A DNA stretch of 10,200 nucleotides from an uncultured Thermococci archaeon. Lineage in GTDB: Archaea; Methanobacteriota_B; Thermococci; Thermococcales; Thermococcaceae. The position numbers were made by a program, and so were the translations under genes. The notes under the pieces are model-generated. The model searched no databases, was not told the origin of the DNA, and worked only from the letters and a program-made list of their open reading frames with translations. This document shows, piece after piece, positions 2 to 10,200 of this stretch; within the stretch, counting starts at the first letter, position 1; every line of letters begins with the position of its first letter. The stretch covers positions 1 to 10,200 of the forward strand of contig CAZAPD010000105.1 in assembly GCA_964487115.1 (NCBI GenBank), written 5' to 3'.

Positions 2-51
2 TTTAAAAGCCCAACTTTTATAAACCCTCTCGCATCGCTATGCGAGGGTGA
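2..51 (+). promoter_or_regulatory. Putative promoter and RBS of the yhbY-rps19e unit
   Basis: TATA-like TTTAAAA (2-8) and TTTATAA (17-23); GGTGA Shine-Dalgarno at 47-51, 5 nt before ATG 57. Confidence 0.55.
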
Positions 52-56
52 GAGAG

Positions 57-473
57 ATGGAAAAACGTTTGCCAGGGAAGGTGAGAAGAGCCATTCGCGC
101 TAAATATCATGACATCGAGCCCAAAGCGTGGATTGGTAAGAAAGGTTTGGATGAGGGGGTAATTCACGAGATAAACACCCAGCTCAAAAAGGACGGCATC
201 TTAAAGGTTGAGATTAGGAAAGGTGCTCTAATTTCCACTGAAATGGAGAGAAAAGAAATAGCCGAGAAGGTGGCTGAACTAACGAACAGTGAGCTTATAG
301 ATATCAGAGGCAAAAGGTTTATATTGTTCAAGCCGAGAGAGGGTTGGGAAAAGTATTTAAGAAAGCTTAAGAGAAAAGAACTCTCAAAGGAGAAACGGGA
401 GGAGAAACCCGTTAAAAAGGTCAAGCTCGATATTGCTCAATTCAGGAAAAAGTTCAAGAAAGGGAGGGATTAA
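57..473 (+). CDS. yhbY: YhbY/CRM-domain RNA-binding protein with a Lys-rich C-terminal tail
   Basis: CRM motifs ([37 protein letters not shown]); position next to rps19e is typical of archaea. Start moved from GTG 48 to ATG 57 because GTG 48 lies inside the SD. Confidence 0.88.
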
Positions 474-475
474 GT

Positions 476-928
476 ATGGCGACAGTTTATGATGTTCCCG
501 GTGATTTGCTCGTTGAGAGGGTTGCTCAAAAGCTCAAGGAGATAGAGGCCATAAAACCCCCAGAATGGGCACCTTTTGTCAAAACCGGAAGGCATAGAGA
601 GCGCTTGCCCGAGCAGGAGGACTGGTGGTACCATAGGGTCGCCTCAATTTTCAGAAAAGTTTATATCGATGGACCGGTTGGCATTGAAAGGCTCCGCACA
701 TGGTATGGAGGCAGGAAGAATCGCGGACACGCTCCGGAGCACTTTTATAAGGGCAGCGGGTCAATAATAAGAAAAGCCCTTCAGCAGTTGGAGGCAGCGG
801 GCTTTATAACAAAGCTGCCCGGAGAGGGTAGAGTCGTTACTCCTCAGGGAAGGAGCTATCTCGATAAAATAGCCACGGAGCTCAAAAAAGAACTTGAAGA
901 ACAAATTCCAGAACTTAAGAAATACTGA
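476..928 (+). CDS. rps19e: 30S ribosomal protein S19e
   Basis: [56 protein letters not shown] are S19e family motifs; 150 aa. Confidence 0.98.
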
Positions 929-930
929 GC

Positions 931-949
931 TCTTTTATCACATTTCTTC
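931..949 (+). terminator. Possible pyrimidine/T-rich archaeal terminator after rps19e
   Basis: TCTTTTATCCACATTTCTT immediately after the stop codon. Confidence 0.35.
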
Positions 950-1010
950 CCAGCTTAATTCAGGATAGATTTTTAATCTGAATTCCCAAAAAATAATTCA
1001 GGTGATGAAA

Positions 1011-1349
1011 ATGGCGGAGGATATAGAAGAAATCAGGAAAAGGAAGCTCCTTGAGCTGCAAAAGAGGTTGGCAGAACAACAGAAAGCACAGGAAGAAGCC
1101 ATACGGCAAGAAATGGAGCTTGAAGCGCAGCTTGATGCCATAATGAGGCAAATACTGACACCTGACGCCAGAGAGAGGTTAGGAAGAGTTAAACTTGTTA
1201 AACCAGAACTGGCCAGACAGGTTGAGCTGATTTTAGTCCAGCTCTTTCAGGCGGGTCAGGTTAAAGAGAAAATTGATGATGCAAAGCTGAAGAGAATTCT
1301 CGCCCAAATAGATGCCAGAACCCGGAGGGAATACAGGATAAAATGGTAG
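1011..1349 (+). CDS. PDCD5/TFAR19-family DNA-binding protein
   Basis: ILTPDARERLGRVKLVKPELARQVE and KIDDAKLKRIL are PDCD5 signatures; SD GGTGA at 1001-1005 favours ATG 1011 (ATG 1005 is the alternative). Confidence 0.93.
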   Translation: MAEDIEEIRKRKLLELQKRLAEQQKAQEEAIRQEMELEAQLDAIMRQILTPDARERLGRVKLVKPELARQVELILVQLFQAGQVKEKIDDAKLKRILAQIDARTRREYRIKW

Positions 1350-1364
1350 CCTGAAGGGAGCAAC

Positions 1365-1631
1365 ATGGATATTAGAGAGATACTCCAGATTCTCAATGAA
1401 AAGGGAGAGGTTAGCAAGGATACTTGGAAGCCTCTATCAGTGAAAAAGAATAAAGACGGAACAGTTGACGTGCTCTACAAAAACAGGGTTATCGGAACTA
1501 ATGATGATCCAGTTTTTCTTTGGATTTATGCAAATATTGTTGAAGATGACGAGTTAGATGTCAAAGTTCTTGAGAGGATCACTTTTAAAAAAGAAGATAT
1601 AAAATGGATTCTCCGCTATGCTCAACCTTAA
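1365..1631 (+). CDS. Hypothetical protein (88 aa)
   Basis: ATG preceded by purine-rich GAAGGGAG; fills the gap between PDCD5 and tfb; Lys/Asp/Glu-rich composition typical of the host; no family recognised. Confidence 0.75.
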   Translation: MDIREILQILNEKGEVSKDTWKPLSVKKNKDGTVDVLYKNRVIGTNDDPVFLWIYANIVEDDELDVKVLERITFKKEDIKWILRYAQP

Positions 1632-1633
1632 CC

Positions 1634-1680
1634 TTTATATACCATAAAATTTTTAAAGGTATCCGCATGCGGGGGTGAGG
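1634..1680 (+). promoter_or_regulatory. Putative tfb promoter and RBS
   Basis: TTTATATA (1634-1641), AAAATTTTTAAA (1646-1657) and SD GGGGGTGAGG (1671-1680) before GTG 1683. Confidence 0.55.
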
Positions 1681-1682
1681 AA

Positions 1683-2582
1683 GTGGATAAGCGTAGAGTT
1701 TGCCCTGTTTGCGGCTCAACTGAGTTCATTTATGACCCTGGAAGGGGCGAAATCATCTGTACAAAGTGTGGTTTTGTCATTGAGGAAAACGTCATAGATA
1801 CCGGTCCTGAATGGCGTGCTTTTGATGCTTCCCAGAGAGAGAAGCGTTCCAGAACTGGGGCTCCTGAGAGCATTCTCCTTCATGATAAAGGTCTTTCAAC
1901 GGATATAGGAATTGATAGAAGCCTCACAGGTCTGATGAGAGAAAAGATGTATCGCCTGAGAAAGTGGCAGAGCCGTTTAAGGGTCAGTGATGCTGCCGAG
2001 CGTAATTTAGCCTTTGCCCTTAGCGAGCTCGACAGAATTGCTTCACAGCTCAAGCTTCCAAAACATGTGGAGGAAGAGGCCGCAAGACTTTATAGAGAAG
2101 CTGTAAGAAAAGGTCTTATCAGGGGAAGGTCAATTGAAAGCGTTATTGCTGCCTGTGTTTATGCAGCGTGCAGACTGTTGAAGATTCCAAGAACTCTGGA
2201 TGAAATAACTGAAATCTCCAGAGTTGATAAGAAGGAAATTGGACGAAGTTTCAGATTTATCGCGAGAAACCTCAATTTAACTCCAAAAAAACTCTTTGTT
2301 AAGCCGACAGATTATGTAAATAAATTTGCTGATGAGCTTGGTCTGAGTGAAAAGGTTAGGCGGAAAGCTATTGAGTTGTTGGATGAAGCCTATGACAAAG
2401 GGCTCACGAGTGGTAAAAGTCCTGCTGGATTAGTTGCTGCTGCTCTCTACATAGCTGGCCTGCTTGAAGGGGAAAAGAGAACCCAGAGAGAAGTTGCTGA
2501 AGTTGCGAGAGTCACCGAAGTCACAGTAAGAAATAGGTATAAGGAGCTCGTTGACAAGCTCAAGCTGAAGATACCTATGTGA
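1683..2582 (+). CDS. tfb: Transcription initiation factor IIB (TFB)
   Basis: Zn ribbon CPVC...CTKC, B-reader GPEWRAF, two cyclin repeats (GLIRGRSIE, GLTSGKSPAG), C-terminal TEVTVRNRYKEL. Confidence 0.98.
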   Translation: MDKRRVCPVCGSTEFIYDPGRGEIICTKCGFVIEENVIDTGPEWRAFDASQREKRSRTGAPESILLHDKGLSTDIGIDRSLTGLMREKMYRLRKWQSRLRVSDAAERNLAFALSELDRIASQLKLPKHVEEEAARLYREAVRKGLIRGRSIESVIAACVYAACRLLKIPRTLDEITEISRVDKKEIGRSFRFIARNLNLTPKKLFVKPTDYVNKFADELGLSEKVRRKAIELLDEAYDKGLTSGKSPAGLVAAALYIAGLLEGEKRTQREVAEVARVTEVTVRNRYKELVDKLKLKIPM

Positions 2583-3838: not shown

Positions 3839-5227
3839 ATGGGTGTCGAGGCACTTTTTGAACCAAAGAGCATCGCTGTGATAGGAGCGTCTGAGAAGCC
3901 CGGAAAGATAGGATACGCGGTTATGAAAAACCTCGTGGAATATGGATATGAAGGGAAGATATACGCCGTTAATGTCAAGGGCGTCGAAATAAAGATAGGA
4001 AACAGAGTTTTTAAGGCATACAAGAGCATACTCGATGTTCCGGATGACGTCGATATGGCTGTTGTAGTTGTCCCGGCAAAATTTGTTCCACAGGTTGTCG
4101 AGGAATGCGGTCAGAAAGGCGTTAAAGTCCTTCCAATAATAACATCCGGCTTTGGTGAGCTTGGAGAGGAAGGAAAGAAGGTTGAAGAGCAGATAGTCGA
4201 GACAGCTCACAAATACGGAATGAGAATTCTCGGTCCGAATATTTTTGGCGTCGTTTACACTCCAAACAAAATAAACGCTACCTTCGGCCCAACCGATGTT
4301 ATGCCCGGAAGCTTAGCTTTAATCAGCCAAAGCGGGGCCCTTGGAATAGCCCTGATGGGATGGACAATCCTCGAAAAAGTAGGCCTCTCAGCAGTTGTCA
4401 GCATAGGAAACAAGAGTGACATTGATGATGCTGATCTGCTTGAGTACTTCAAAAAGGATGACAACACAAAGGCAATCCTCATTTACATGGAAGGCGTAAA
4501 GGATGGCAGAAAGTTCATGGAAACAGCCAAGGAGGTCAGCAAGAAGAAGCCTATCATCACCATCAAAGCAGGGAGAAGCGAGCGCGGTGCTAAAGCCGCA
4601 GCTTCACACACTGGATCACTCGCGGGTGCTGATAAGATATATGATGCCGCCTTCAAACAAAGCGGTGTCCTTCGTGCTCTCACAATTGGCGAGGCTTTTG
4701 ACTGGGCCAGAACTCTGAGCAATCTCCCGGAGCCAGAAGGAGAAAATGTTGTCATTCTCACAAACGGTGGTGGGATTGGAGTTATGGCTACAGATGCAGC
4801 CGAAGAAGAAGGACTGCACCTCTATGATAACCTCGAAGATTTAAAGCTCTTTGCCAATTACATGCCACCCTTCGGTTCCTACAAAAACCCCGTAGATCTC
4901 ACTGGTATGGCCGGAGCAGAAAGCTATGAAGGGGCTGTCAGAGCTGCCCTTGAAAATCCAAACATGCATGCTATAGCAGTTCTCTACTGTCAGACAGCTG
5001 TGCTTGACCCGAGAGATCTTGCAAAGCTTGTTATAAGAGAGTATAACGCAAGCGGTAAGAAGAAACCTCTTGTTGTTGCTATCGTTGGAGGCATTGAAGC
5101 TAAAGAGGCCATAGACCTGCTCAACGAGGAAGGTATTCCAGCCTATCCTGAGCCTGAGAGAGCCATAAAGGCATTATCAGCCCTCTACCGCTGGAGCAGA
5201 TGGAAGAACCGGCAGAAAACCGAGTAA
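3839..5227 (+). CDS. acdA: ADP-forming acetyl/acyl-CoA synthetase (acetate--CoA ligase) alpha subunit
   Basis: CoA-binding SIAVIGAS, RILGPN, ISQSGALG, IYMEG, phospho-His motif ASHTGSLAG, ILTNGGGIGV, NPVDLTG. ATG 3839 chosen by SD spacing. Probably an ACS I-type paralogue, but the paralogue is not certain. Confidence 0.93.
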   Translation: MGVEALFEPKSIAVIGASEKPGKIGYAVMKNLVEYGYEGKIYAVNVKGVEIKIGNRVFKAYKSILDVPDDVDMAVVVVPAKFVPQVVEECGQKGVKVLPIITSGFGELGEEGKKVEEQIVETAHKYGMRILGPNIFGVVYTPNKINATFGPTDVMPGSLALISQSGALGIALMGWTILEKVGLSAVVSIGNKSDIDDADLLEYFKKDDNTKAILIYMEGVKDGRKFMETAKEVSKKKPIITIKAGRSERGAKAAASHTGSLAGADKIYDAAFKQSGVLRALTIGEAFDWARTLSNLPEPEGENVVILTNGGGIGVMATDAAEEEGLHLYDNLEDLKLFANYMPPFGSYKNPVDLTGMAGAESYEGAVRAALENPNMHAIAVLYCQTAVLDPRDLAKLVIREYNASGKKKPLVVAIVGGIEAKEAIDLLNEEGIPAYPEPERAIKALSALYRWSRWKNRQKTE

Positions 5228-6464: not shown

Positions 6465-8975
6465 TCAGAAAGTGAAGTAGTCCATTTTCTCCTCCTTCTC
6501 ACCTCTAACCTGTCTGCTTTCCTCAAAGTTCCTGTAGTAATCCAGCATGTATTTTGTTATGCTCGGTTTTACCTTTTTCATGGCTTCCTCAAAGTCCCTC
6601 CTTGAAACTTTCAGCTTCTCAAGAAACTCCTCACTTTGCTCTTCCACCAGCTCAGATTCCGTGCGTGCCATTATTCTACGCATCGCATTTAATGCCGCCT
6701 CTCTTACGAGTGCTGCCAGATCTGCTCCGCTGTAGCCTTTGGTTCTCTTTGCGAGATCTTCAAGACTTACATCCGAAGCAAGCGGAACCCTTCTCGTGTG
6801 AACCCTGAGAATCTCAAACCTTGTCTTTTCATCTGGTGCCGGGACATATATTAATCTATCAAGCCTTCCGGGTCTGAGTAAGGCGGGATCGAGGATGTCC
6901 GGCCTGTTGGTCGCAGCTATGACAACAACTCCACTGTTCCGTTCTATGCCATCCATCTCCGTCAGGAGCTGATTTATAAGTCTGTCAGTTACTCTGTTCA
7001 TATCTGTGCCTCTGGCAGGAGCTATTGAATCGATTTCATCTATGAATACTACAGTTGGAGCAGCCTGTCTCGCCTTCCTGAAAATTTCCCTAACTCTCTT
7101 CTCGCTTTCTCCCACCCATTTTGAGAGAACTTCAGGCCCCCTAATCCCAATAAAGTTAGCCTCACTCTCAGTAGCGACAGCCTTGGCCAGCAGAGTCTTA
7201 CCAGTCCCCGGCGGACCGTAAAGCAGAACACCCTTCGGCGGCTCTATCCCAAGCCTCTCGAAGGCTTTCGGGTACTTTATCGGCCACTCAACAGCTTCTT
7301 TAAGCTCTTCTTTTATATTCTCAAGGCCTCCTATGTCTTCCCAGTGCACGTTCGGAACTTCAAGGAGGACTTCCCTCAGCGCCGATGGTTCAACCATCTT
7401 AAGAGCCTCATAGAAATCAGCTTTTGTTACCTTGAGCTCCTGAAGAACCTCCGCAGGTATTCTCTCATGTTCTGGATTTATTTTTCCCTGCTCTATAAGC
7501 CGCCTGAGGACTACCATAGCTGCCTCTCTTGCAAGGGCGGCTAAATCTGCACCAACAAAGCCATGGGTCTTTTCGGCAATCTCTTCGAGCATTTTATCAA
7601 CCAGTCTGCTGCGAACTTCCCGGTACAGCTCACTGTCTTCTTTTAAAACTTCTTTAATCTCCCTCTCATCCTTTAAACTTCCAATTTTCTCAGTAAGTTT
7701 CTGGATTTTCTTTCCATCAAAACGCTCATCTTTCACAAGATCCTTCAGAACCCTAACAACAGCATGTCTGTCAAAATCCGGCTCAAGGGGCATTCCTCTT
7801 GTGTGTATTTGAAGTATCTCCTTCCTTCCCTGTTTATCTGGGACACCAACTTCAATTTCCCTGTCAAACCTTCCGGGTCTCCTCAAAGCCGGATCAATAG
7901 CGTCTGGTCTGTTAGTCGCGGCTATAACTATAACCTTCCCCCTCTTTTTAAGTCCATCCATGAGGGTTAATAACTGGCTTACGACTCTTTTTTCAACTTC
8001 TCCAGTAACTTCCTCCCTCTTGGGAGCAATTGCATCAATCTCATCAATGAAAATTATACTCGGAGAATTCTCCTCAGCTTCCTTGAATATCTCCCTTAAT
8101 CTCTCTTCACTCTCACCGTAGAACTTGCTCATGACTTCAGGTCCATTTATTGCTATGAAGTGGGCATTAGCCTCGTTAGCAACAGCCTTGGCCAGCAGAG
8201 TCTTACCAGTCCCCGGCGGACCGTAAAGCAGAACACCCTTCGGCGGCTCTATCCCAAGCCTCTCGAAGAGCTCAGGATGTTTGAGCGGAAGCTCAACCAT
8301 CTCGCGGATCTTTTGTATTGCCTCTTTGAGACCGCCTATATCCTCATAGGTAACTTCAGGTATGCTCTCCTCCCTTACCTCAACCGCCTGAGGCAGGACT
8401 TCAATCTCAGTGTTGTAGGTTATCTGGACTATACCCTTGGGATTCGTGTTGACAACTATGAACTTCAATTCTCCAAAGCCAAGAGGCATGGCTTCAAAAA
8501 GTCCTCTAAAAAGCTCATCGAAGGGGTCTCTCGGATAAATCTCACTTCCTCCCCTGCCGCTGGCAACCACAACGTCACCTTTAACAAGTGGTCTGCCCAG
8601 GAGGTTGTTTTTCACAATCTCACCGGGAATCTGAATGTAAACCCCCTTCTGAGCAGGAGCAAGAGTAACTTTCTTCGCCTCATGGACTTCAGCCCTCTTC
8701 ACTCTTATGTAGTCTCCTATGCTCACTCCCGCATTCCTCCTTATATAACCGTCTATCCTGATGATGTCTATGCCCCTATCATCCGGATGGGGATTGGCAA
8801 CTATCGCCGCTGTGCTCTTCTCTCCAATGAGCTCGACAATATCACCCGGTTCCACAGCGAGCTGTTTTTGATATTTTCTATCAAACCTCGCTATCCCTCT
8901 TCCAACATCCTTCTTCAGGGCCTCAGCTACCCTGAGCTTGATTTCCTCTTTGGTCTCTTCCTTTCCAAAAATCAT
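6465..8975 (-). CDS. cdc48: Cdc48/VAT (p97) family type II AAA+ ATPase
   Basis: N domain ([14 protein letters not shown]), two AAA modules each with [21 protein letters not shown] and RPGR; pore loops KFYG and KWVG; SD GGTGA upstream. Confidence 0.97.
7177..7263. repeat. 87-bp perfect direct repeat, D2 Walker A copy in cdc48
   Basis: Identical base-for-base to 8182-8268. Confidence 0.95.
8182..8268. repeat. 87-bp perfect direct repeat, D1 Walker A copy in cdc48
   Basis: Identical base-for-base to 7177-7263. Confidence 0.95.
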
Positions 8976-9745
8976 TTTCCATCACCTTTAATTCTCTTTT
9001 TATGAGCTTCAATAGCCTCTTCAAGAGTCAGGTTGCCTTTGGCAACCTCTTTGGCAAGATCAGATGAAATCGTTATAGTCCTGCTCAGCTCCCTGCTCCT
9101 CTTCTTTATGTATTCAATCTCCCCCTTAGTCGGCTCACCTGATTCCATCAGCTCTCCAATCTTAACTTCTCTACCATCCCTTAAAGCTATATTGATTGAG
9201 GCCACTATATCCTGCACTTGGGAAACCTCAATCCCACCAACTTTAGGGGTTGTCTTCTTTTCATTCACGAGAATTATGGGATGGTCCTCACCCAGTACAT
9301 TTGCCAGAGCCTTCAGCATAAGAATTCTGTGTCTTTTTGCCCCGTGGCCAATCTTCAGCTTTGCCCCCGGGTATTTCTCAAGCAGTTCAAGAATTATCCC
9401 CACATCACGGGGATTTTTTAAGTGGTAAACTTCCAGAACCCTATTATCTGCAACCACGCTAACCCCCGGTCTCTCCCCCGGATCAATGGCTATGTACATA
9501 TGCCTGAATTTTCCCCTTCCCTCAAGCTTTGCCAGCAGTTCATCAATAAAATTCTCATTCTGCACGATGATTTTAACAGGAAAATCGACTCTATCATAAT
9601 CTTCCTCGCCTGTCAAAACAACCTCAACGTCAAATGGAATCCTCTCTCCCGGCCGCAGGCTATAAAAGGGAATCCTGTATTCTTTCAAAACCTTCGAAGC
9701 GAGATAATAAACTCTTGCATTTGATGTTACCACTGCAACCCTCAT
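8972..9745 (-). CDS. Uncharacterised protein with a central YqgF/RuvX-like RNase H-fold domain
   Basis: [30 protein letters not shown] and [10 protein letters not shown] follow the YqgF/Tex motif order. The stop overlaps the cdc48 start (ATGA). ATG 9745 is preferred (probably leaderless, TATA about 23 nt upstream). Confidence 0.8.
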
Positions 9746-9767
9746 GGTTGAGGCTATGAACATTGAG

Positions 9768-9824
9768 TATTAAAGCATTTCCCGAAAATTATTTTAAATC
9801 ACAGGCATAGCGTAGAACGAGGTG
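9768..9824. promoter_or_regulatory. Back-to-back divergent promoters plus RBS
   Basis: Minus-strand TTTAATA at 9768-9774; plus-strand CGAAAA (9783-9788) and TTTTAAA (9792-9798); SD GAGGTG at 9819-9824. Confidence 0.6.
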
Positions 9825-9829
9825 TTTGC

Positions 9830-9973
9830 ATGCAGCCCCCAAAAAAGAGAAGGCAGACTGAAGGGGAGGAAGAGTTCGAGGAGGAGTGGGAAGAGTTTGA
9901 AGAAGAGTGGGAGGAGGAAGAGGACTGGGAAGAAGAATGGGAGGACGAATGGGAAGAAGAGGAAGAATGGTGA
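9830..9973 (+). CDS. 47-aa Glu/Trp-rich acidic microprotein MQPPKKRRQTEGEEEFEEEWEEFEEEWEEEEDWEEEWEDEWEEEEEW
   Basis: Not in the ORF track. ATG is 5 nt after SD GAGGTG with a TATA box upstream; GAA/GAG alternation preserves Glu in this frame; TGA at 9971-9973. Confidence 0.8.
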   Translation: MQPPKKRRQTEGEEEFEEEWEEFEEEWEEEEDWEEEWEDEWEEEEEW

Positions 9974-10005: not shown

Positions 10006-10200
10006 TCACAGTTCTTTGAGCTTTTCTGCTTTTTTCCACTCAGCTCTCTTTATCAGCTCGATGGTGTAAGCATAAAAGCCGATTTTCGTGAGGAGCTCTG
10101 GAAAAGGCTCGTTCTCGGACAGCTCCTTAATCTTTGCGGAGAGCTTTTTAATGGCCTTTTTCTTTGCTTCCTCAGAGTGGTCAGTGAACTCTAAAGCCTG
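10006..10200 (-). CDS. 3' end of a hypothetical protein (partial, starts beyond the window)
   Basis: Open frame from the edge reads QALEFTDHSEEAKKKAIKKLSAKIKELSENEPFPELLTKIGFYAYTIELIKRAEWKKAEKLKEL*, with host-like helical K/E-rich composition. Confidence 0.7.
   Translation of the reverse strand, partial: QALEFTDHSEEAKKKAIKKLSAKIKELSENEPFPELLTKIGFYAYTIELIKRAEWKKAEKLKEL

Follow-up and report, generated by a model that had tools for sequence, protein, structure and literature searches.

The window analysed here is a stretch of 10,200 nucleotides from an uncultured archaeon of the Thermococcaceae, and near its right end it carries a very short open reading frame (ORF) preceded by its own translation and putative promoter signals and divergent from a longer conserved gene. 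The features on which the following analysis turns, together with a second copy found elsewhere in the same genome, are these:

8972..9763, minus strand: conserved gene for a 263-aa protein, divergent from the ORF and heading the cdc48 operon; by gene-order comparison a usual but not an obligatory neighbour
9783..9788, plus strand: putative BRE-like purine-rich element, CGAAAA (sequence; relatives have an A-rich run upstream of the TATA box)
9792..9799, plus strand: TATA-like box TTTTAAAT, 38 nt upstream, of a putative promoter (sequence and relatives)
9819..9824, plus strand: Shine-Dalgarno (SD) site GAGGTG, 5 nt upstream of the ATG (sequence and the 16S 3′-end of the same genome)
9830..9973, plus strand: microprotein ORF of 47 aa, family type A, with an M-Q-P-P-basic head, an acidic/Trp body and a terminal Trp (translation, homologs and codon test)
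9830..9859, plus strand: conserved basic head (comparison of copies across the Thermococcaceae)
9860..9970, plus strand: acidic body with aromatics every 3-6 residues and Trp at its end (sequence)
Contig C33 of the window genome (G000), 37804-37980 (4805-4981 in locus L069), minus strand: second family copy, 58 aa (six-frame scan)

At the opposite end of the window (48-2582, plus strand), a gene for a YhbY-like CRM protein, whose profile match was tested, is followed by others, among them one for an unknown 88-aa protein; those after the CRM gene include what we take to be relatives of ribosomal protein S19e, a PDCD5-like protein and TFB.

The earlier note had described the ORF as an unannotated microprotein with a basic head, a Glu/Trp body, a strongly negative charge and a terminal Trp, and translation of 9830-9973 bears this out: a 10-residue head with four K/R is followed by 37 residues comprising 26 E, 2 D, 6 W, 2 F and 1 G, the net charge is -24, and W is the last residue. 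Read from the sequence, the spacing of the aromatics along the ORF is 4, 3, 4, 6, 4, 4 and 6, while Glu is encoded by 14 GAA and 12 GAG codons and Phe by both TTC and TTT. The upstream signals that had been pointed out are likewise present as sequence. GAGGTG is complementary to the 16S 3′-end GATCACCTCC on contig C85 of the same genome, and TTTTAAAT lies close to the position of a TATA-like site found at -39 in 11 of 71 relatives; from the TATA-like box and the BRE-like run we infer a promoter of the gene's own. Scanning the whole 2.06-Mb genome in six frames for stretches of 30 aa that contain 18 or more D/E returned two matches, the window ORF and the paralog on contig C33.

When codon patterns, a profile and direct reading of loci were combined, a copy of the microprotein gene was found in 94 of 97 Thermococcaceae genomes, and since the three genomes lacking one are 74, 81 and 86% complete, all 79 high-quality genomes carry it. 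Individually, an N-terminal codon pattern matched 68 of the 97 genomes, a C-terminal codon pattern matched 84 (against one for its reversed control), and an HMM profile of the family matched 63, missing the window genome's own copy. On reading, eight N-terminal pattern matches proved to be non-members and were dropped (G001:C6, G012, G026, G032, G047:C31, G050:C77, G051 and G087:C41), as were one HMM match in G079 and four of the five matches of a loose search, all false positives. At least two copies occur in 13 genomes. The statistics that follow rest on 71 fully read copies, many further copies being represented by pattern matches only.

Across the family, the microproteins are 44-71 aa long, carry charges of -22 to -39 and hold 2-8 Trp residues, with a body of 73% E/D and 14% W in which the aromatics are mostly spaced by 4-6. 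The first 14 residues contain 4-5 K/R in 70 of the 71 copies. Two subtypes can be distinguished, namely type A (56 copies), which ends in Trp in 53 cases, and type B (15 copies), which has a Tyr-containing head and in no case a terminal Trp. SD-like sites, by a loose pattern, precede 70 of the 71 copies, and a TATA-like motif lies within 60 nt upstream of 59.

Protein-level selection had been proposed from the window copy, and it is confirmed by the relatives. Among the 56 type A copies, differences at codon positions 1, 2 and 3 amount to 0.11, 0.13 and 0.55, and the median pN is 0.17 against a pS of 0.93 over their 1540 pairs, which are not independent of one another; all four Pro codons are used in the head, the stop codons vary (TGA 55, TAA 11 and TAG 5 of 71), and the frames are intact in the copies read. 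Therefore, the window ORF is a real, conserved gene under purifying selection at the protein level. That it might instead be a purine-rich slippage repeat, or a non-coding RNA with a chance ORF, is highly improbable: its low complexity and one relative with AGG in the place of the start codon could be read in this way, but the codon-position bias, the varying stop codons and the conserved SD spacing speak against it, as does an RNA that shows no structure and no Rfam match above chance.

Several copies depart from the common form. The one with AGG for its start codon lies in a complete genome (G015, L040:1787-1900, minus strand) and represents either a loss in progress or a sequencing error. 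The copy at the syntenic position in G042 (L049:320-490, plus strand) has diverged and holds just two Trp, neither of them terminal; as this genome has a type B copy too (L101), relaxed selection on a redundant gene is suggested. The same type B copy stands at the ends of two contigs of G056 (L117 and L121), likely an assembly duplicate, and was counted once. In G171, two Cys-containing proteins of about 116 aa (L253:1250-1597, minus strand, and L254:880-1233, plus strand) bear the acidic/Trp tail fused at their C-termini; one of the two genes adjoins a thermonuclease-like gene, an ordinary stand-alone copy is also present (L255), and the fusions possibly reflect capture by a mobile element.

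The neighbourhood of the gene changes within the family. The 263-aa protein of the divergent gene is itself present in 95 of 97 family genomes, its gene overlapping the start of cdc48, and in 64 of these 95 the microprotein gene holds the syntenic position, divergent from the operon and usually with moeA downstream, so that the synteny check proposed in the earlier note came out positive. It had been suggested that the microprotein inhibits the divergent nuclease-like protein or serves Cdc48 as an adaptor or tag. The neighbour's predicted structure (pLDDT 82) does resemble RNase H-like folds weakly (Tex, TMq 0.33; IS110 RuvC-like; Argonaute, E 7e-5 and TMq 0.23), an A-x-D-P-G-E-R-P-G motif is invariant in its central domain, and its sequence matched nothing in Pfam, NCBIfam or the PDB. 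However, 31 of the 95 genomes, among them every genome of genera g3 and g5, have no copy beside the cdc48 operon, and 29 of these 31 carry one elsewhere; no Cdc48 family match occurred among 110 flank fragments from other archaea; and the divergent genes have separate promoters, so that their linkage may be inherited gene order only. Neither the inhibitor nor the adaptor was thus upheld, and a role of this local kind is improbable.

Away from the cdc48 operon, the microprotein gene is found in other company. All nine genomes of genus g3 have it directly upstream of nip7, and at the loci read (L076-L083 and L073) its last codons overlap the nip7 start while a gene for a pterin-binding DUF4346 protein lies upstream; translational coupling of the microprotein with nip7 is possible in this genus. 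The C33 paralog of the window genome also precedes nip7, here by 95 nt, and a gene for a KaiC-like ATPase. A general link to nip7 was considered and dropped, as none of 11 other genomes checked in the window's genus has a copy upstream of nip7 and the closest relatives checked (G064 and G047) have none at that locus. In genus g5 the gene lies between those for a metallophosphoesterase and a PHO4 transporter (three loci read), while type B copies and a number of second copies have an MFS gene downstream. Among the 49 Thermococcaceae genomes with both genes on one contig, the microprotein gene was within 19 kb of the gene for the ribosome-splitting ATPase ABCE1 in none. These changing neighbours favour a product that acts in trans, and disfavour one tied specifically to the divergent gene or to Cdc48.

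Transcription, whose absence would have counted against the gene by the criteria of the earlier note, was seen for the type B copy of one relative, G024 (L096:1169-1384, plus strand), whereas the window copy is of type A and lies outside the RNA data. In four studies, each with one run, RNA contigs extend from L096:1141-1145 to 1510-1537, and in the raw reads of a fifth study 13 molecules start at 1141. The transcript thus begins 28 nt upstream of the ATG and 29 nt past the start of the box TTTATAAA, and the contigs stop 126-153 nt beyond the stop codon, within the MFS gene. First mates over the ORF map to the plus strand only and those over the adjoining minus-strand prefoldin gene mostly to the minus strand; since these strands match the orientations of the two genes, the G024 copy appears to be transcribed in the sense direction. 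In runs X1, X2 and X6 the contigs span the ORF and its flanks without a break and are therefore uninformative on transcript ends. Within the MFS gene, molecules start on both strands near L096:1809 (minus) and 1830 (plus), possibly at divergent internal starts or processing sites.

The run of the G024 contigs into the MFS gene, together with the frequent location of the microprotein gene ahead of a gene in the same orientation (moeA, nip7, MFS, PHO4 or ABCE1), would suit a cis-acting, Trp-rich leader peptide that stalls ribosomes and so couples translation to the expression of the gene behind it. We consider this improbable. The next gene in the window (10006-10200) is convergent to the microprotein ORF and so leaves no downstream gene to control, as is the case for many Asgard copies and copies flanking EF-2; the downstream genes vary by clade, none of those seen being for Trp biosynthesis; and the microprotein RNA folds worse than its shuffles (z +1.65). 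A Trp attenuator in the strict sense was rejected on the same convergent gene, fold score and unrelated neighbours, there being neither a Trp-related operon nor alternative hairpins.

The family has left few traces in databases and in the literature. All 20 members looked up are missing from a collection of about 15 billion predicted proteins, and profile searches, which perform weakly on such low-complexity composition, recovered two proteins among 1.84 billion representatives and four among 5.8 billion clusters, so that most copies have gone uncalled or been filtered out. The three of these proteins that bear a name are called 'hypothetical protein', and one entry so named, WP_173866246.1 from Thermococcus henrietii, is a type B member called by a gene finder. 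Pfam and NCBIfam gave no family match for the microprotein, a PDB sequence search gave centrin at E 0.07 only, and the ESM Atlas holds the exact window sequence and no convincing relative (best match 0.79, within chance). A search of the openly accessible literature by title and abstract opening found no description of the family, and six of its peptide motifs matched no paper. The accessible part of one report describes 55 new orphan RNAs without an ORF over 10 codons (PMC4247193), and family terms had no match in the accessible part of another (PMC6640164). We regard the microproteins as an undescribed archaeal family, real and strongly conserved, for which a role in translation is plausible.

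Stand-alone micro-ORFs of a similar acidic/Trp make-up are also present in Bathyarchaeia, Thermoprotei and Asgard archaea. A strict pattern of W, acidic residues, W and stop was searched over 185,579 genomes and gave at least 120 matches; among the 120 listed, 18 are of the Thermococci type, 84 come from other archaea (102 archaeal matches) and 18 from bacteria. Among these listed matches, 80 of the 84 non-Thermococcal archaeal ones are short stand-alone frames with a start codon and a W end, whereas 14 of the 18 bacterial ones sit in long or open frames, and the named hosts include Bathyarchaeia, Desulfurococcales, Thermofilaceae, Nitrososphaerota, Methanomethylicota, Culexmicrobium, Thorarchaeota and Promethearchaeota. 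A basic head with Pro, resembling that of the Thermococcal form, is present in some of the listed Bathyarchaeia copies, and many of the listed non-Thermococcal copies have no such head. In 12 of the 60 named loci among the matches listed, from Bathyarchaeia and from Desulfurococcales/Ignisphaera, the start of ABCE1 follows just downstream.

This linkage recurred in an even sample of 221 genomes from the phylum that holds Bathyarchaeia and Desulfurococcales/Ignisphaera, of which 66 carry the pattern against 10 for the reversed control. Of the 66 carriers, 28 have the micro-ORF upstream of ABCE1 in the same orientation, at a distance of 47-367 nt, and 11 have it within about 3.5 kb; the other 27 are unlinked, the two genes being far apart in 11 and on different contigs in 16. 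Related genomes in these counts are not independent, and kin inflate them. Elsewhere among non-Thermococcal archaea the flanks include EF-2, an Fcf1/PIN nuclease, Sua5, TFS and an aIF1A-RIO-KH cluster. The strict pattern returned nothing from 36 genomes of other families of the Thermococcaceae's phylum. In Asgard archaea it matched only 14 of 121 genomes (control, 7), and in 13 of these 14 the match is a short acidic ORF with W as its last residue; these copies mostly flank a phosphorylase gene, and no ABCE1-like ORF lies within 1.5 kb of them. In two Asgard genomes the first ORF is accompanied, at about 1.2 kb, by another that is likewise short, acidic and Trp-terminated (L416:2748-3029, minus strand; L423:1-237, plus strand), and L151 and L152, too, are two copies on a single contig. 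Among 2.9 million viral contigs, the strict pattern found one locus, a longer acidic ORF, and of 120 matches listed for a loose pattern 25 are in frame and none is family-like, so that neither search gives evidence of viral carriage.

The window ORF shares with the ABCE1-upstream class a short stand-alone E/D frame, spaced W residues, a terminal W and an SD site of its own; adjacency to ABCE1, the remaining trait of that class, is not seen in the Thermococcaceae. The Thermococcaceae genes and the ABCE1-linked genes probably form one family, a kinship that we infer because low-complexity sequence cannot prove descent.

Starting from what was observed, namely the gene, its conservation, the RNA of one relative and the ABCE1 linkage in other archaea, we propose a model in which every step beyond that linkage is conjectural. 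The microprotein could be a disordered ligand of ABCE1 or of the ribosome, working by analogy with the stalk tail of aP1 or the acidic-Trp motif of eIF3j; we hold this reading tentatively, at somewhat less than even chance. The peptide would act in trans on the translation machinery, its likeliest targets being ABCE1 and other factors that bind the P-stalk. Free, it would be unfolded; on its target, hydrophobic pockets would take up the Trp residues, the terminal one above all, and the acidic backbone would pair with surfaces that are basic and face RNA; this docking would tune the recruitment or the ATPase activity of the bound factor. In the Thermococcaceae the basic head might tether the microprotein to rRNA, and as a free peptide of repeated motifs it might compete with the stalk or assist it. 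Each of the contacts has a precedent in the accessible parts of the reports concerned: the hydrophobic C-terminal residues of aP1 bind a pocket on NBD1 of ABCE1 (PMC6125642), the eIF3j N-terminus takes a similar position on ABCE1, termed a multivalent interaction patch by its authors (PMC7780240), and the binding of eIF3j to eIF3b is driven by Trp52 and its flanking acids (PMC2824034), a case in which one Trp with flanking acids is enough for a specific contact.

The neighbours bear on this proposal in both directions. In its favour, they are often translation or ribosome-maturation genes (EF-2, Fcf1/PIN nuclease, Sua5, aIF1A-RIO-KH and nip7); against it count the distance from ABCE1 in the Thermococcaceae, the 27 unlinked carriers among 66, the Asgard flanks, the few Asgard matches of the strict pattern and its absence from the 36 genomes of other families, and type B, which has no terminal Trp, and many neighbours are unrelated to translation (moeA, MFS, PHO4, AdoMetDC and asparaginase). 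Complex prediction of the microprotein with the genome's ABCE1 (alignments A2 and A3) scored 0.00 twice, with the fold of the partner uncertain, and bears on binding in neither direction. Of the functions first imagined from the window alone, an acidic, disordered, aromatic-studded ligand remains the natural reading and the ribosome-related option has gained from the neighbours in other archaea, while the nuclease inhibitor and the Cdc48 adaptor found no support.

Two other trans-acting roles have to be weighed against the translation ligand. The microprotein might be a general polyanionic chaperone or nucleic-acid mimic with many partners, shielding basic proteins such as histones, Alba, RPA, free ribosomal proteins and PUA proteins like Nip7, in the manner of DSS1/Sem1 or prothymosin alpha. 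Its high charge in so few residues, a length that varies while the composition stays fixed, a mobile genome position with its own promoter, the multiple copies in 13 genomes and the nip7 overlap of genus g3 would all agree with this. Such a chaperone, however, would leave the tight ABCE1 linkage in two classes unexplained, and the retention of the terminal Trp in nearly all type A copies suggests a specific pocket; DSS1_SEM1 matched neither 59 members nor the window genome. We regard the chaperone as possible but rather less likely than the ligand. Alternatively, the microprotein could be an adaptor that delivers Fe-S clusters to ABCE1, as Lto1/Yae1 and the C-terminal Trp targeting signal of eukaryotes would suggest. 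ABCE1 is an Fe-S protein and, in one phylum, the neighbour found most often, and type A has its terminal Trp after acidic residues; but type B lacks that Trp, and no Fe-S assembly gene is found among the identified neighbours, so that this function is improbable.

That all high-quality genomes of a well-studied archaeal family share a gene which family libraries and searchable papers lack points to a missing core archaeal component, and the gene may well encode an overlooked helper of protein synthesis. This work adds the near-universal Thermococcaceae branch, which has a basic head and two subtypes and stands apart from the ABCE1 locus, together with the overlap with nip7 and an RNA 5′-end mapped in a relative. 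If the microprotein does regulate ABCE1, archaea would have in it an accessory recycling factor, with implications for where the acidic-Trp motifs of eukaryotic factors came from. In a bolder form, which we think doubtful, it could be an ancient, near-essential translation factor consisting of nothing but a free acidic-Trp motif, regulating ABCE1-driven ribosome recycling from Thermococci to Asgard archaea and representing a stand-alone precursor of the eIF3j motif that has escaped notice because micro-ORFs are discarded by gene callers and low-complexity filters. The function is directly testable in the Thermococcales, since genetics, reconstituted ABCE1 ribosome-splitting assays and ribosome structures exist for them.

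Among known systems, DSS1/Sem1 (PF05160) and prothymosin alpha resemble the microprotein in being small, very acidic and probably disordered. DSS1 also has spaced aromatics and prothymosin a short basic patch, whereas the microprotein is shorter and simpler than both and ends in Trp; membership in DSS1/Sem1 was rejected, since PF05160 matched none of 59 members (E up to 10) and nothing in the window genome (E up to 1). With eIF3j/Hcr1, the microprotein shares a Trp flanked by acids in the N-terminal motif, and the N-terminal region of eIF3j contacts ABCE1, according to the accessible parts of PMC2824034 and PMC7780240. An acidic motif centred on Trp is indeed present, a low-complexity resemblance by composition only. 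However, eIF3j is a long protein that dimerises through a six-helix bundle, and the target of the Trp motif characterised in it is the RRM of eIF3b, while the microprotein is only the repeated motif in 44-71 aa; membership was rejected, as neither the helical dimerisation domain nor a Pfam match was found.

The aP1 tail comes close in another way, being a flexible Glu-rich stretch with a hydrophobic or aromatic end that binds ABCE1 NBD1, aEF1A and aEF2 (PMC6125642, accessible part), so that the binding partner of the tail is the product of the very gene that neighbours the micro-ORF class. Unlike the microprotein, aP1 is a ribosome-anchored protein of 109 aa with a dimerisation domain, and its tail, in the window genome's own aP1, has no Trp and ends in Leu-Phe-Gly; the microprotein is free-standing and holds 2-8 Trp. 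Ribosomal_60s (PF00428) matched no microprotein, its sole match in the window genome being the true aP1 on contig C71, and membership in aP1/P1/P2 was rejected, as the family ends in acidic residues with or without a W and does not have the C-terminal Leu/Phe motif (L103, L106 and F107 in the accessible part of PMC6125642). In conclusion, judged by sequence, the microprotein is not a member of the aP1, eIF3j or DSS1 families, whose defining domains are absent, yet it may work like the motifs of any of the three. Therefore, the gene family is counted as new, because the membership tests against described families failed, while its likely binding chemistry resembles that of known motifs.
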